The notes under the pieces are model-generated. The model was given only the letters and a program-made list of their open reading frames with translations. It made no database searches and had not been told where the DNA came from. Source: Escherichia phage teqhad. Taken from it: a DNA stretch of 64,000 nt. Positions within the stretch are counted from its first letter, which is position 1. Every line of letters begins with the position of its first letter. Made by a program: the position numbers and the translations under genes. The stretch lies in sequence record NC_054933.1. The stretch is one strand, 5' to 3'. Below, in pieces: positions 5,061-45,296 of this stretch.

Positions 5061-5534
5061 TTATTTGAACGATTTAACGTACTGAATAGAACCTTTACTA
5101 TTTACAAAGGCAATTTTACCATTTTTATTATACATGGTAGCAGTACGTTGATAACCATAAGTTTGTTTACCAGATTGATAACCAACTAATGCGAAATTAT
5201 CTTCGCCCATTTTATTCTGTTTAGCGCGAATGCGTTCATGACCATGTGCCATAAGAACCTTAGCATCACCGGTTGCAATGGATCTACGAGTTTTTTCATC
5301 TTCAACTGTATTAACAAAGTCGTCAAATGAATCAAATTTAGCATGAGATTTATTATACAGTTTTCCATCTACTGCATAATTATATCCCTGTACATCCATC
5401 TCAACTTCTGTACCATCATCCAATACAGCAGTGATTTTTTGACCTTTTTTAAATTTCAAAAGATCAGTAAAAGATTCAGCAATAATTTGAGAATTAATAG
5501 CTGCTTCAGTGATAAATTCTTGATATGTTTTCAT
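5061..5534 (-). CDS. internal protein (IP) family, capsid-targeted
   Basis: N-terminus MKTYQEFITEA matches the conserved T-even IP capsid-targeting sequence with ITE|A and IAE|S gp21-type cleavage sites. Confidence 0.65.
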   Translation of the reverse strand: MKTYQEFITEAAINSQIIAESFTDLLKFKKGQKITAVLDDGTEVEMDVQGYNYAVDGKLYNKSHAKFDSFDDFVNTVEDEKTRRSIATGDAKVLMAHGHERIRAKQNKMGEDNFALVGYQSGKQTYGYQRTATMYNKNGKIAFVNSKGSIQYVKSFK

Positions 5535-10594: not shown

Positions 10595-11068
10595 TTATTT
10601 GATTTGTTTAGCAGACCAAATGCGATCTTTAATAATTTTTTGGATGTCTTCAACATACTCTAGGTCATGAGCATGTGGATTATCTTTGAAACTATGAGCT
10701 CGCGCAAGTTTCTGGCCTTCGGTCTTAATTATCAAAAGTTCTTTAAGAATTGCTTCATACCTAGAGATAATTCCTTTAGCAATATTTTTTTCTTGTGCTG
10801 CTTTAGGGTCAGCCTTAGGAGCAGGTTTACCTGAAGCCTTTGCAAAAGCAGCTCCAGTAGCAACTAAACTTTTCCAGGCCATACTAACTGCATTTCCCGT
10901 AAATCCTTCTGCTTTCATGTCGCGAGCAAATTGGAATCGTGATTCATCAGAAGCATCTTTATAGGAATATTTACCCGCTGCAATGGCTGCTTTTGCGACA
11001 GCTTGAATTTCGGTGCTAAACGCTTCATTTAACACCGCTTCATTTAAAAATTGAGTATATGATTTCAT
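10595..11068 (-). CDS. internal-protein-like protein with a divergent capsid-targeting N-terminus
   Basis: MKSYTQFLNEAVLNEAF resembles the IP CTS MKTYQEFIAEA; Ala- and Lys-rich body. Confidence 0.55.
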   Translation of the reverse strand: MKSYTQFLNEAVLNEAFSTEIQAVAKAAIAAGKYSYKDASDESRFQFARDMKAEGFTGNAVSMAWKSLVATGAAFAKASGKPAPKADPKAAQEKNIAKGIISRYEAILKELLIIKTEGQKLARAHSFKDNPHAHDLEYVEDIQKIIKDRIWSAKQIK

Positions 11069-11118
11069 CTTATTTCCTGTTTTAATTTGTAGATTTAATA
11101 TACTTATTTATACTAAAA

Positions 11119-11458: not shown

Positions 11459-11534
11459 TGGTCGAGGCAGTAGGGATCGAACCTACGACCCAGGACTTAG
11501 AAGGTCCTTGCTCTTCCTTCTGAGCTATGCCCCG
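11459..11534 (-). tRNA. tRNA-Arg (anticodon UCU)
   Basis: Cloverleaf read by eye on the minus strand; T-arm gtagg-gatcgaa-cctac; anticodon loop CUUCUAA; encoded CCA. Confidence 0.7.
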
Positions 11535-11538
11535 TAAT

Positions 11539-11614
11539 TGGGGTGACCGATGGGAGTCGAACCCATGACTACGAGAATCACAATCTCGAGTTCTACCAAC
11601 TGAACTACGGCCAC
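11539..11614 (-). tRNA. tRNA-His (anticodon GUG), tentative
   Basis: T-arm atggg-agtcgaa-cccat; anticodon loop UUGUGAU; discriminator C73. Confidence 0.5.
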
Positions 11615-11728
11615 ATTAATACCTACTCCAACAATCAAGATGTCTTCACACGAAATTAAGAGAAGAGTGATCAGTTCAACCCCTATAATCGCGTCAAGTA
11701 GATATTAATGTGACAGTTGTCACAAATT

Positions 11729-11803
11729 TGGCGGACGTGATAGGATTCGAACCTATAACCAATCGCTTAACAGGCGATCGCTCTGCCATTGAGCTACACA
11801 TCC
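11729..11803 (-). tRNA. tRNA-Asn (anticodon GUU), tentative
   Basis: T-arm atagg-attcgaa-cctat; anticodon loop CUGUUAA. Confidence 0.55.
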
Positions 11804-11807
11804 AAAT

Positions 11808-11894
11808 TGGTGGGGAGTGGTGGAGTCGAACCACCCGAGTCGCAATGACAATGGATTTACAGTCCACACCGCTACCTCTACGGGATAACTCCCC
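11808..11894 (-). tRNA. tRNA-Tyr (anticodon GUA), class II with long variable arm
   Basis: Anticodon loop CUGUAAA; long variable arm; overall pattern parallels E. coli tRNA-Tyr. Confidence 0.6.
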
Positions 11895-11907
11895 TTAATT
11901 CTTAATT

Positions 11908-11982
11908 TGGTGGCCCTGGGTGGAATTGAACCACCATCTGGCGATTATGAGTCGCTTGCTTGAACCTTCCAGCTACAGGGCC
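11908..11982 (-). tRNA. tRNA-Ile (anticodon CAU, presumably lysidine-modified) or tRNA-Met
   Basis: Anticodon loop CUCAUAA; acceptor ggccctg/cagggcc; T4 tRNA-Ile also carries CAU. Confidence 0.7.
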
Positions 11983-11983
11983 T

Positions 11984-12059
11984 TGGTGCTGATTGACGGA
12001 ATCGAACCGCCGACCTTCTCATTACAAGTGAGTTGCTCTACCTACTGAGCTAAATCAGC
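11984..12059 (-). tRNA. tRNA-Thr (anticodon UGU)
   Basis: Anticodon loop CUUGUAA; T-arm ggcgg-uucgauu-ccguc. Confidence 0.75.
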
Positions 12060-12064
12060 AAAAC

Positions 12065-12154
12065 TGGCGGAGGCGATAGGATTTGAACCTATGAGTCGCC
12101 GGAGCGACTGCCGGTTTTCAAGACCGGTGCATTAAACCACTCTGCCACGCCTCC
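12065..12154 (-). tRNA. tRNA-Ser (anticodon UGA), class II
   Basis: Reverse complement reads GGAGGCGUGGCAGAGUGG...CUUGAAA...GGUUCAAAUCC...CGCCUCCGCCA, matching T4 tRNA-Ser as recalled. Confidence 0.85.
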
Positions 12155-12156
12155 AG

Positions 12157-12230
12157 TCTCCATACAAGGATTTGAACCTTGGACCTCCTGATCCCAAATC
12201 AGGCGCTCTACCAAACTGAGCTACACGGAG
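12157..12230 (-). tRNA. tRNA-Pro (anticodon UGG), no encoded CCA, abuts tRNA-Ser
   Basis: Anticodon loop UUUGGGA; T-arm caagg-atttgaa-ccttg; 3' end 2-3 nt from the tRNA-Ser 5' end. Confidence 0.75.
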
Positions 12231-12240
12231 TAAATTAAAT

Positions 12241-12314
<74 letters not shown>

Positions 12315-12319
12315 AAATT

Positions 12320-12406
12320 TGGTGCGAGAAGTGGGACTCGAACCCACAAGGAAATCATTCCGCAGCATTTTAAGTGCTGTGCCTTTACCAATTTGACCAT
12401 TCTCGC
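12320..12406 (-). tRNA. tRNA-Leu (anticodon UAA), class II
   Basis: Reverse complement reads GCGAGAAUGGUCAAAUUGGUAAAGGCACAGCACUUAAAAUGCUGCGG...GGUUCGAGUCCCACUUCUCGCACCA. Confidence 0.85.
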
Positions 12407-12412
12407 TCTATA

Positions 12413-13045
12413 TTATTTATTACGTGAAAAAGATTGTTCTATCAATTCTGGACACTTTCGTTCTATCCATTTTCTAGCTTTTTGTGGGCTTATACCTATT
12501 ATTTTAGCAGCTTTACTAACCCATCCAAATTTAGAATAATCGATTTTAACTAATTCTTCGTAAATTTCATCAGTTAAAATCTTTTCATTAATATTTACCA
12601 GTAAATGATATAATTTATTATCATTAGCAATTTTAATGAATCTTTTATAGTTTCCGCCTTTACTTAAACCTAATGAAGTAATTGCAGATGATATAGTAGC
12701 CGAATTTAATAATGCGTTTAAAATTTCTTCATCACTAACATTATAACGCTTTTTATTATTTTTAATATTTTTACCAGCAAAAGTATCAGTTTGCGAATGG
12801 CAATTTGGACATAATAATCTTAAATTTGATTTAAGATGATTTTTATTATTTCCATCAATATGGTCTAATTGCAGAACAATATGCTTATTTTGCCATTTTG
12901 AAATTTTACAAATTGCACACTCATATGGAAAAATATTTTCTTTTATTATTTTGTCTTTCAGCTTTCCTGTACTAAAATTTGGATGTTTTCCTTCAAAAAT
13001 TTCAGCTAATTTAGTATCCATAATATAATTCCCAATTATTAACAA
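12413..13045 (-). CDS. free-standing HNH homing endonuclease with C-terminal helix-turn-helix
   Basis: HNH core LQLDHIDGNNKNHLKSNLRLLCPNCHSQTD; C-terminal WVSKAAKIIGISPQKARKWIER HTH-like; probable true start at MDTKL. Confidence 0.8.
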   Translation of the reverse strand: MLIIGNYIMDTKLAEIFEGKHPNFSTGKLKDKIIKENIFPYECAICKISKWQNKHIVLQLDHIDGNNKNHLKSNLRLLCPNCHSQTDTFAGKNIKNNKKRYNVSDEEILNALLNSATISSAITSLGLSKGGNYKRFIKIANDNKLYHLLVNINEKILTDEIYEELVKIDYSKFGWVSKAAKIIGISPQKARKWIERKCPELIEQSFSRNK

Positions 13046-13931: not shown

Positions 13932-14342
13932 TCAGCCTCTATCAACGATAGTATGAGTATGGGCATTTACGATTTGCCACCAGTCAAAGCGATTAGAACC
14001 ATAATCTGGTTTATTTTCATTTTCTTTAATGATATCACGCAGTTTATCTTCTGTTTCAGCATACGCAATTAAATCATCATATCCACCACAAGGGTAATAA
14101 TTATCACCTGCGAATAAAAGAAAATTTACCTTAGATGGATTTAAGTAATAATGGTCTTTAGGATATTTAGTTCCTCTCCAATCAGTTACTTCAACATAAC
14201 GGTAAGAAAATCCATTTTTACTTTCAATCCAACTCCACGCTTCAAAAGGAGTATTAAAAACTTTATCAGGTATTAAATTACCTTCAAAATGAGAAGGATT
14301 TGCATAATCCCCAGCATAAACATAATATTCGTTAATACTCAT
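13932..14342 (-). CDS. hypothetical protein (136 aa)
   Basis: ORF track; aromatic-rich. Confidence 0.5.
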   Translation of the reverse strand: MSINEYYVYAGDYANPSHFEGNLIPDKVFNTPFEAWSWIESKNGFSYRYVEVTDWRGTKYPKDHYYLNPSKVNFLLFAGDNYYPCGGYDDLIAYAETEDKLRDIIKENENKPDYGSNRFDWWQIVNAHTHTIVDRG

Positions 14343-14528
14343 TTATTCACCTTTAGAAATTTTATCCATAACGATAGCAATTAAACCAATTAAAAATGCT
14401 ACTACAAGTGAAAAAACATTTTCTGCTGTAGTCAATAATCCGCATATAAATCCAACAAACATTGAAAAACTAAAAGCAGAAGCAGAAATTGCAATAGCAA
14501 CATTTCGAATTAATTCACAACGTTTCAT
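14343..14528 (-). CDS. small two-helix membrane protein (61 aa)
   Basis: Hydrophobic helices AIAISASAFSFSMFVGFICGLL and VVAFLIGLIAIV. Confidence 0.5.
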   Translation of the reverse strand: MKRCELIRNVAIAISASAFSFSMFVGFICGLLTTAENVFSLVVAFLIGLIAIVMDKISKGE

Positions 14529-14586
14529 TTTATTCTCCTCAGTAGTAGATAGGGTAATAGTATCACTACCCTATCTAAAAGTAAAC
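14529..14586 (-). promoter_or_regulatory. early-promoter-like element (copy 1 of a repeated module)
   Basis: Minus strand reads aagTTTAC-(18 nt)-TACTAT...gaggagaataaaATG; the 22-mer gatagggtaatagtatcactac recurs at 14850..14871. Confidence 0.4.
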
Positions 14587-14838
14587 TTATTTTTTACGAA
14601 AAATTGATTTATATTTATCAGCCCATTTCTCGATGACTTTTTCTGGTCCATAGATAACAAAATAATCACCAAACTCTTCACCACCGAGTTGACCGAAATT
14701 ATCTAATGCATCACGAAGAACTCCATGAGGCATTTCGCCCATTTTATCTTTCTTACCAATGTAAATAAACTCAACTTTTACATCAGCAGCTTCAGCAATA
14801 AATTCTTGATACGTTTTCATTTTATTCTCCAATTTCAC
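14587..14838 (-). CDS. ipI: internal protein I (IPI)-like, capsid-targeted, with a divergent effector domain
   Basis: Internal ATG gives MKTYQEFIAEA, an exact IP capsid-targeting sequence; position next to 57B parallels T4 ipI; the mature part is unlike T4 IPI as recalled. Confidence 0.7.
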   Translation of the reverse strand: MKLENKMKTYQEFIAEAADVKVEFIYIGKKDKMGEMPHGVLRDALDNFGQLGGEEFGDYFVIYGPEKVIEKWADKYKSIFRKK

Positions 14839-14898
14839 ATTTGTTTTGATAGGGTAATAGTATCACTACTAAAACCCCGTGTAAACAACTTTGTGAAA
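14839..14898 (-). promoter_or_regulatory. early-promoter-like element (copy 2) upstream of the ipI-like gene
   Basis: Minus strand reads gttgTTTACAcggggttttagtagtgaTACTATtaccc...; shares the 22-mer with 14529..14586. Confidence 0.4.
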
Positions 14899-15595
<697 letters not shown>

Positions 15596-15596
<1 letters not shown>

Positions 15597-16348
15597 TATA
15601 GTACCTTTAGTGTATTTTTAATTTTAGAAAAAAGTTCTTCAAGAGAACCATCGTTTGTAATTACTAAATCACCATCACGAATTGGCAATCCAGCTTCTGT
15701 AATATGTGTATCATTGGATTTTTGACCAGGACGAACTACATGAATTACTGTAGCACCCATCGCCCTAGCCGCATCCATTTCATGATCTTGACGAGTATCA
15801 GGAACAATATAATAATCATAACCTGAGTTAAATTTATCAAGATAATCTAAAGCAAATAATTTTACCCAGTACATGCGGTCGAAGTTATTAACAATCAAAT
15901 CCGTACCTAGGGCTTGCATCAGACGACGGACTGACCATTGATCTTCAATATTATTTATAACGTCAGCAATCTTGTTAAATGCTACGAAATTAACTACGTC
16001 ATCAAAAACAAACACACCTTTAATTGGGCTTTTACTATTAAGATAGCAAAATGCTTGTTCCATAATCGTAATTACTTCTAATTTAGTCAGATTTAAATTA
16101 GTTTCACGATCATAGTCAATTCCTTCAAACTCTTTACGAGTTAAACAAGGATAGTCAGTGTTTGCTGCAAATACACCCCATGCATAAGCCAATGCATCTT
16201 TAATAGGACCAGCAAGTTGATATTTAACTGCAGAATAATTGCTCATGATAAAATCTGCAGTAGTATCTTTTCCACTACGCTTTACACCGCTTAAAAAGAT
16301 TAGTTTCATGTGTTTCTCCTCAAATTTAATTAAGATTATAACACACAA
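15596..16348 (-). CDS. 1: deoxynucleoside monophosphate kinase
   Basis: MKLIFLSGVKRSGKDTTADF P-loop; true start probably the internal ATG near 16309. Confidence 0.9.
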
Positions 16349-43393: not shown

Positions 43394-43818
43394 TGCTTCT
43401 GATCCCTGAAACTCATGAATTAGTTCTCGAGAATGTCGAAGCACTTATTCCTGAAGCACAGGGTCGCTTTGACGAGTTGTCTTCTGCTTTAAATAAAGAC
43501 GATATAAATAAAATTATCGAGAATATGCTTGATGATGAAACTGATTTAGCGGTTGCATTAGCTTCTATTAATGAAAATATGCCGTTAAATGAATTTATCG
43601 TTAAACATGTTTCTGCCCGTGGTGAAATTACTCGCACTAAAGATCGCAAAACCCGCGAACGTAATGCATTTCAAACTACCGGGTTGTCTAAAGCAAAACG
43701 TAGACAAATTGCTCGTAAAGCTACCAAAACGAAGATTGCCAATCCAGCAGGTCAATCTCGTGCTCAGCGTAAGCGTAAAAAAGCTCTTAAACGCCGTAAA
43801 GCATTAGGATTAAGCTAA
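43393..43818 (+). CDS. 68: prohead core protein gp68
   Basis: 141 aa. Confidence 0.9.
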
Positions 43819-44456
43819 TGAATGAACCCCAATTACTAATTGAAACTTGGGGTCAACCTGGCGAAATTATTGATGGCGTACCAATGCTTGAATCTCATGA
43901 TGGAAAAGACTTAGGCTTAAAACCTGGTTTATACATCGAAGGAATATTCATGCAAGCGGAAGTCGTCAATAGAAATAAACGTCTTTATCCAAAACGTATA
44001 TTAGAAAAAGCGGTAAAAGACTATATTAATGAGCAAGTTTTAACTAAACAAGCTCTCGGAGAATTAAATCATCCTCCACGCGCTAATGTTGACCCGATGC
44101 AAGCCGCTATCATTATAGAAGATATGTGGTGGAAAGGAAATGACGTATACGGACGAGCTCGTGTTATTGAAGGTGACCATGGTCCTGGAGATAAATTAGC
44201 AGCTAATATTCGTGCCGGATGGATTCCAGGAGTTTCTTCTCGTGGATTAGGTTCATTGACTGACACAAATAAAGGTTATCGTATCGTAAACGAAGGATTC
44301 AAATTAACTGTAGGTGTTGATGCAGTATGGGGTCCAAGTGCTCCAGATGCATGGGTAACTCCTAAGGAAATTACCGAATCACAGACGGCGGAAGCCGATA
44401 CAAGTGCCGATGACGCCTATATGGCTCTCGCAGAGGCCATGAAAAAAGCGTTATAA
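43818..44456 (+). CDS. 21: prohead core protease gp21
   Basis: 212 aa. Confidence 0.95.
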   Translation: MNEPQLLIETWGQPGEIIDGVPMLESHDGKDLGLKPGLYIEGIFMQAEVVNRNKRLYPKRILEKAVKDYINEQVLTKQALGELNHPPRANVDPMQAAIIIEDMWWKGNDVYGRARVIEGDHGPGDKLAANIRAGWIPGVSSRGLGSLTDTNKGYRIVNEGFKLTVGVDAVWGPSAPDAWVTPKEITESQTAEADTSADDAYMALAEAMKKAL

Positions 44457-44486: not shown

Positions 44487-45296
44487 ATGCTTAAAGAACA
44501 ACTGATTGCCGAAGCGCAGAAAATTGATGCTTCCGTTGCTCTTGATAGTATTTTCGAATCAGTTAATATTTCTCCGGAAGCAAAAGAAACTTTCGGCACT
44601 GTATTCGAAGCTACCGTCAAGCAGCACGCCGTTAAATTAGCTGAATCTCATATCGCTAAAATTGCTGAAAAAGCAGAAGAAGAAGTAGAAAAAAATAAAG
44701 AAGAAGCAGAAGAAAAAGCTGAGAAGAAAATCGCTGAGCAAGCTTCTAAATTCCTTGACCATCTTGCAAAAGAATGGCTCACTGAAAATAAATTAGCAGT
44801 AGATAAAGGCATTAAAGCCGAACTGTTTGAATCCATGCTTGGTGGATTGAAAGAGCTCTTCGTTGAACACAACGTTGTTGTTCCAGAAGAATCAGTTGAT
44901 GTTGTAGCTGAAATGGAAGAAGAACTGCAAGAACATAAAGAAGAATCAGCTCGTCTGTTCGAAGAACTCAATAAGCGTGACGCATATATCAATTATGTGC
45001 AGCGTGAAGTGGCATTGAGCGAAAGTACTAAAGATCTGACTGAGTCTCAAAAAGAAAAAGTCTCTGCTCTGGTCGAAGGTATTGATTATTCAGATGCATT
45101 CTCAAGCAAATTGAGTGCCATCGTAGAAATGGTGAAGAAATCTAATAAAGATGAAAGCACTATTACTGAGAGTATAAATACTCCTGATACTGAAGCAGCC
45201 GGACTGAATTTCGTCACTGAAGCTGTAGAAGATAAATCTGCACAAGGTGCAGAAGATATTGTAAGTGTATATGCGAAAGTCGCATCTCGTTTCTAA
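44487..45296 (+). CDS. 22: prohead core scaffold protein gp22
   Basis: 269 aa, E/K-rich helical. Confidence 0.95.
   Translation: MLKEQLIAEAQKIDASVALDSIFESVNISPEAKETFGTVFEATVKQHAVKLAESHIAKIAEKAEEEVEKNKEEAEEKAEKKIAEQASKFLDHLAKEWLTENKLAVDKGIKAELFESMLGGLKELFVEHNVVVPEESVDVVAEMEEELQEHKEESARLFEELNKRDAYINYVQREVALSESTKDLTESQKEKVSALVEGIDYSDAFSSKLSAIVEMVKKSNKDESTITESINTPDTEAAGLNFVTEAVEDKSAQGAEDIVSVYAKVASRF

Follow-up and report, generated by a model that had tools for sequence, protein, structure and literature searches.

The ip6 gene of a Tequatrovirus encodes a named internal protein with the leader of T4 IPII and IPIII and a mature domain unlike T4 IPI

Phage T4 and its relatives carry two hypervariable internal protein (IP) loci, in which a conserved leader of about 11 residues precedes unrelated mature domains and the genes are flanked by early promoters and inverted repeats. 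The variable loci, the conserved leader and the promoter/stem-loop flanks were reportedly first described by Repoila and colleagues in 1994, a study cited in PMC12373910, PMC3012670 and PMC2839356. The mature form of T4 IPI, IPI*, is an inhibitor of GmrSD-CT596, and its structure has been solved by NMR. To our knowledge, a target is known for only three of the dozens of Ip families.

More than 30 IP variants have been described, and the repeated promoter/stem-loop units around them are thought to mediate cassette shuffling (Arbiol et al., 2010, PMC2839356). Each of the three T4 proteins Ip1, Ip2 and Ip3 blocks a GmrSD Type IV restriction enzyme of its own and gives no cross-protection, with GmrSD-ECOR21 and GmrSD-ECOR17 as the enzymes inhibited by IPII and IPIII (Ip2 and Ip3) (Silas et al., 2025, PMC12373910). 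According to a review of the work of L. W. Black, residues 1–10 of IPIII suffice for incorporation into the head, foreign proteins fused to the leader, such as GFP, are packaged and delivered into the host, and the internal proteins co-purify with gp22 (PMC9026906). Because injected internal proteins act before phage gene expression, they bear on host range and on which phages to choose for therapy. The principle of a conserved leader, variable effector domains and cassette shuffling is already established and Ip6 is already catalogued; what the present analysis adds to the question of the Ip6 target is two modest leads, a leaderless homologue and a pair of old allele classes.

The 64-kb stretch of DNA analysed here (the window) is a segment of a Tequatrovirus (T-even) genome. 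Its (-) strand carries, in order, gene 1 (dNMP kinase), 57A, 57B, the gene under study, homologues of trna.4 and trna.3, and a tRNA cluster. Judged by this gene order the locus is, as had been predicted, the T4 ipI locus, the slot between 57B and trna.4, and the surrounding 1.4 kb shares 94–97% identity with numerous T4-like phages of Escherichia, Shigella and Yersinia. The original prediction presented the gene as a new kind; it is in fact ip6, an already named member of the polymorphic Tequatrovirus internal-protein (Ip) family. Its product matches the profile of PHROG 8111 (‘internal virion protein’) over residues 1–77 of 77 (E = 1.8e-50) and is 84–99% identical to the VR20 and vB_EcoM_112 proteins, which carry the names Ip6 or ‘putative internal head protein’. 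The JK1 and VR-phage orthologues are likewise called Ip6, that of Yersinia phage PST is IpVI, and the T6 annotation reads ‘internal virion protein’. A tblastn search with the mature domain found 229 phage records, 15 of them at 99% identity or above, and the gene is missing from about 540 of the approximately 770 related phage records that match the region.

The gene had been delimited as the maximal open reading frame, 14587..14838 on the (-) strand, which in the ORF list has 83 codons from a GTG and contains MKTYQEFIAEA. The GTG at 14838 was rejected as the start, as it has no ribosome-binding site and related phage records annotate a 234-nt ip6 CDS from the ATG equivalent to 14820; the 83-aa form is present in one record, vB_EcoM_112. 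The ATG at 14820..14818 is preceded by GGAGAA at T4-typical spacing. Because of this ribosome-binding site and the start used in the related records, translation almost certainly begins at the ATG at 14820, which shortens the predicted gene to the CDS listed in Table 1. The resulting 77-aa precursor reads MKTYQEFIAEAADVKVEFIYIGKKDKMGEMPHGVLRDALDNFGQLGGEEFGDYFVIYGPEKVIEKWADKYKSIFRKK.

Table 1. Features of the ip6 locus, related features elsewhere in the window, and the leaderless homologue. A slash marks the expected gp21 cleavage position.
Feature	Position	Strand	Details and basis
ip6 CDS	14587..14820	(-)	77-aa precursor plus stop codon; ORF list and sequence, PHROG 8111 match
ip6 ribosome-binding site GGAGAA	14825..14830	(-)	4 nt upstream of the ATG; read from sequence
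Capsid-targeting leader MKTYQEFIAE	14791..14820	(-)	ends in gp21 motif I-A-E/A; identity with T4 IPII and IPIII leaders
Predicted mature Ip6* domain	14590..14790	(-)	67 aa, 7.7 kDa, pI about 6.8; predicted beta-alpha-beta-beta-alpha-beta fold
Upstream cassette, T4-type early promoter overlapped by stem-loop	14836..14898	(-)	promoter scan, direct repeat, RNA fold
Upstream cassette promoter	-35 GTTTAC 14886..14881; -10 TACTAT 14862..14857	(-)	promoter scan
Downstream cassette, early promoter of trna.4 homologue	14535..14586	(-)	inverted repeat I5, direct repeat D1, RNA fold
Downstream cassette promoter	-35 GTTTAC 14586..14581; -10 TACTAT 14562..14557	(-)	
Inverted repeat I5, 11 bp, perfect	14546-14556 and 14567-14577		just past the ip6 stop, in the downstream cassette
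Nearest same-strand upstream late-promoter motif TATAAATA	15952..15959	(-)	inside gene 1, 1.1 kb upstream; pattern search
gp21 prohead protease	43818..44456	(+)	expected leader-removing enzyme; Pfam Peptidase_S77, E 1.5e-111
gp22 scaffolding core protein	44487..45296	(+)	expected leader docking partner; Pfam T4_CASP, E 3.1e-90
Second leader-bearing ORF, MKTYQEFITE/A..., 157 aa	5061..5534	(-)	PHROG 3155 ‘internal virion protein’; Pfam DUF7412
157-aa ORF starting MKSYTQFLNE/A	10595..11068	(-)	leader-like N-terminus with L-X-E motif
Leaderless homologue P0012	L005 4001-4192; also L006-L008	(+)	Logan metagenome contigs SRR21291447-51

Residues 1–11 of Ip6, MKTYQEFIAEA, are letter for letter the N-termini of T4 IPII and IPIII (NC_000866). 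The leader reported in the original prediction is thus present in all 11 of its residues, but the implied assignment to IPI was mistaken, as the T4 IPI leader differs from that of Ip6 and reads MKTFKEFTSTTTPVSTITE/A. From the sequences, chance can be ruled out as the source of 11 identical residues in a row at syntenic sites. The Ip6 N-terminus conforms to the MKT(Y/F)(Q/K)EF-type targeting sequence of the Ip family, and the leader ends in I-A-E (residues 8–10), the sole L/I-X-E motif in the protein; this definition of the gp21 motif, with the cut after Glu, was taken from PMC9026906. Both gp21 and gp22 are encoded by the phage, as are the gp20 portal and the gp23 capsid protein in the same window. 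Together with the PHROG assignment, these data uphold the reading of the leader as a T-even capsid-targeting sequence cleaved by gp21, and capsid targeting of Ip6 is strongly supported at the level of sequence. Packaging, cleavage and injection would be expected from the experiments on the identical IPIII leader; in the literature searched, neither virion proteomics nor genetic work on Ip6 itself came to light.

A relaxed leader pattern, applied to the six frames of the window, matched only two ORFs, ip6 and that at 5061..5534. The latter lies downstream of denV; T4 has ipIII and ipII between e and denV, and the second IP locus is therefore arranged differently here. Another ORF, 10595..11068, belongs to neither of the two classical IP loci; it sits with the e-region ORFs on one side and the tRNA cluster on the other, at a spot where the T4 annotation has no CDS. 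An exact late-promoter motif TATAAATA stands about 35 nt upstream of it (11105-11112, (-) strand), and its mature part has a basic pI of 9.4. Homologues of this ORF retain MK(S/T)Y.(E/Q)FL..E, with MKFKEFLAEA in Klebsiella and Yersinia phages; the family is PHROG 2280 (‘unknown function’), and in the 25 records listed of 510 phage records the homologue is a ‘hypothetical protein’ or is unannotated. This ORF may mark a third IP locus, with a product that has gone unrecognised as an internal protein. In the adjacent tRNA cluster, ARAGORN found 10 tRNAs in 11459-12406, with tRNA-Gln not among them. Directly after tRNA-Leu comes a 210-aa ORF (12413..13045, (-) strand), whose HNH endonuclease match is weak and falls below threshold (E = 0.0057), at the position of tRNA-Gln in T4, T6, PST and JK1; it may be a homing-endonuclease insertion or replacement.

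The ip6 gene is flanked on both sides by the same unit, consisting of GTTTAC, 17 nt, TACTAT and then a ribosome-binding site and ATG. A 22-nt exact direct repeat (D1) is common to the upstream and downstream cassettes, and the 16-nt block from ribosome-binding site to start codon recurs before the next gene (repeat D2). In each cassette the RNA is predicted to form a stem-loop that overlaps the -10 element, with folding energies of -18.7 kcal/mol upstream (z = -3.6) and -18.5 kcal/mol downstream (z = -3.4). The upstream cassette aligns with the ipI-locus cassettes of T4 and T6, and the position of the locus and its flanking repeats agree with the polymorphic IP loci, with their early-promoter/inverted-repeat flanks, as described in Arbiol et al. 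(2010, PMC2839356). A pattern search found no late promoter directly upstream of ip6, and no terminator-like site was found in 14200-15400. The motif TATAAATA inside gene 1 is a possible source of late transcripts running through 57A and 57B into ip6. Late synthesis of ip6, which packaging would require, is thus plausible.

As I-A-E is the only gp21 motif in the protein, the predicted mature form, Ip6*, has 67 residues and a mass of 7.7 kDa; its net charge is about zero (12 K+R vs 12 D+E). It had been claimed that this part does not resemble T4 IPI, and the comparison bears this out. In BLASTP the alignment of Ip6 with T4 IPI is confined to residues 1–16 with nothing detectable beyond, IPI* is not among the matches of a PDB sequence search at E<=10, and a PDB fold search with Ip6* did not match it either. 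On present evidence Ip6* accordingly has no sequence or fold similarity to the mature domain of the IPI* (T4 Ip1) family of GmrSD inhibitors. Structure prediction, proposed earlier as a check, gave a generic ferredoxin-like sandwich for which fold searches returned no informative structural neighbour, the top BFVD match being the ‘Ip6 putative internal head protein’ of phage VR7 (TM 0.95). A Pfam search of Ip6 gave no family above threshold, and a weak local similarity to DyP peroxidases disappeared when the family profile was used and is regarded as chance. Conservation within Ip6 sits in specific loops, among them an invariant GKKDxMGEMP loop, and not in composition.

An exhaustive HMMER search of the mature domain against 1.84 billion representatives returned only the family itself, one leaderless protein (P0012) and a low-complexity repeat protein (P0013, E = 3.8e-4), which was treated as spurious. 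P0012 has 63 residues and is 58% identical to Ip6 over the whole mature domain (E = 7e-15). It is encoded on contigs of a distant T4-like metagenomic phage. Its start aligns with Lys15 of Ip6, with its own ribosome-binding site and in-frame stops upstream, and it therefore has no capsid-targeting leader. P0012 is flanked by GTTTAC...GTGATA promoter-like units and has a ribosome-binding site similar to that of ip6, but its context differs, as it lies between baseplate genes and a weak MotA-like ORF, and the protein is acidic (pI 4.5) where Ip6* is neutral. Over 8 kb of the contig the ip6-like cassette was the top-scoring Tequatrovirus DNA match in each of the records listed, and no listed Tequatrovirus match spanned most of the 8 kb. 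Since P0012 lacks the leader and lies in its own cassette, the leader and the Ip6 domain are modules that can be separated, and the domain can presumably also act as an ordinary early cytoplasmic protein.

The ip6 alleles fall into two deeply diverged classes that differ mainly in codons 45–72 (beta3, beta4 and alpha2; 14590..14685). In this segment dS is about 1.3, compared with about 0.1–0.2 in the N-terminal half of ip6, in 57B and in trna.4, and lower still in trna.3. The dN/dS ratio is close to 0.25, the divergent segment included, which indicates purifying selection. Together with the dS of about 1.3, this rules out recent positive selection between the alleles; the two classes go back either to an old polymorphism or to a recombined segment and do not mark a recent adaptive burst.

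How Ip6 might act can be proposed from these data and by analogy with the T4 internal proteins. The early promoter of ip6 would drive synthesis of the precursor, probably supplemented late in infection by read-through transcripts. The 10-residue N-terminal sequence would bind the gp22 scaffold core, so that Ip6 is built into the prohead, where gp21 would cut after Glu10 and leave the compact ferredoxin-like domain inside the head alongside the DNA. At the next infection the mature domain would be injected together with the DNA and, in the cell before phage gene expression, would most likely bind and block a single specific defence protein of the host. As target class, a modification-dependent (Type IV, GmrSD-like) nuclease subtype beyond those assayed may be the likeliest. 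We give this reading, in which ip6 is an Ip cassette whose product is packaged, cleaved by gp21, injected and inhibitory to a specific host defence, a probability of about 0.6. An anti-defence role of distinct specificity, and with it the target class, is plausible as a best guess. The neighbouring gene 57B (14899..15354, (-) strand) matches Pfam Acb1, an anti-CBASS protein (E = 2.6e-60), so that ip6 adjoins a known anti-defence gene; in some phage records 57B/Acb1 is still annotated as ‘RNA ligase’ or ‘hypothetical protein’. Against the proposed mechanism stand the generic fold, the neutral pI of 6.8, unlike the basic T4 Ips, the lack of a late promoter directly upstream, and the outcomes for ip4-10 and for T6 in the GmrSD assays described below.

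If Ip6 is packaged and injected, its target could instead be another defence system or a host function of early takeover, and not a Type IV enzyme. The ip4-10 genes of T4-like phages gave no reproducible inhibition of the active GmrSD variants (Silas et al., 2025, PMC12373910, Suppl. Fig. 9), which favours this possibility, as do the fold unrelated to IPI*, the neutral charge of Ip6* next to an acidic leaderless relative, and the anti-CBASS enzyme beside the locus. However, the GmrSD family is very diverse, and the assay, which drew on 15 synthesised group representatives and had 8 active systems, covered a small part of that diversity (PMC12373910). Moreover, the Ips whose target is known (Ip1, Ip2 and Ip3) all inhibit GmrSD-family enzymes, and nothing positively indicates another target; a target outside the Type IV enzymes is therefore unlikely, though to be taken seriously. 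The same study also narrows the field from the other side: GmrSD-ECOR17 and leaky expression of GmrSD-ECOR21 still restrict phage T6, which carries ip5 and a T6-type ip6 (PMC12373910), so these two enzymes are not Ip6 targets. A bolder version, which we consider distinctly doubtful, would make Ip6 an injected inhibitor of a non-GmrSD defence, with the allele classes tracking variants of the target; P0012 would then show that T4-like phages can turn early anti-defence proteins into pre-loaded, injected ones by mere addition of the 10-residue leader.

The leader and the locus of Ip6 are as in other Ips, and IPIII mutants have head-assembly defects (PMC9026906). It might thus be argued that Ip6 is packaged with no specific host target and serves head assembly or DNA condensation/ejection, as partly suggested for IPIII. 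Several observations make such a role improbable. A net charge near zero is poorly suited to neutralising the charge of DNA, the gene is missing from most of the related records, and what is conserved is a set of specific loops rather than a composition. In addition, the domain exists in P0012, which could not be packaged by the leader route, and this argues against a purely structural role as head packing material. That Ip6 is an unpackaged, early cytoplasmic accessory protein whose leader is a relic of cassette recombination would accord with the early promoter directly upstream, the lack of an adjacent late one and the leaderless homologue, which shows that the domain can work on its own, but is very improbable given that the leader is kept in the aligned Tequatrovirus Ip6 proteins and is identical to one shown to be sufficient for packaging (PMC9026906), and that the late-promoter motif lying 1.1 kb upstream could give late mRNA, the scan of 14200-15400 having found no terminator-like site.

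The closest known systems are the Ip6 proteins of T6, PST, JK1, VR7/VR20/VR25/VR26, KAW1E185 and other Tequatroviruses (PHROG 8111), which are products of the same gene and share with the protein studied here, as Ip6/IpVI, the leader, the length of 77 residues, the locus and the flanking cassettes. The mature domain is 100% identical to those of KAW1E185 and T4_ev151 and 76–78% identical to those of the T6-type alleles; the allele in the window belongs to the minority class, with GGEEFGDYFVIYGPEK instead of the AAEDYGDKIVVTGPAA of the other class. In T6 and PST ip5 and ip6 stand in tandem, whereas ip6 stands alone in this phage.

T4 IPI shares with Ip6 the slot between 57B and trna.4, the cassette architecture and the motif MKT(Y/F)(Q/K)EF, and the mature proteins are of similar size (76 aa for IPI* and 67 aa for Ip6*). 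The two differ in the length of the leader, which has 19 residues in IPI and 10 in Ip6, and in charge, IPI* being basic (pI 9.0) and Ip6* neutral. With T4 IPII and IPIII the likeness is of the opposite kind: the 11-residue N-terminus is identical and the cleavage site follows Glu10, but their genes lie at the other IP locus (e/denV), and their mature parts are larger, basic and unrelated in sequence to Ip6*. Other Ip PHROG families match Ip6 only over residues 1–18 or 1–30. Finally, the flanks of ip6 resemble the PeSL cassettes (Repoila, 1994; Arbiol, 2010) in their repeated succession of early promoter, stem-loop, ribosome-binding site and ATG, but they are AT-rich T-even analogues built on T4 early promoters, and not the sigma-70-like polyG/polyC PeSLs of RB49 and phi1.
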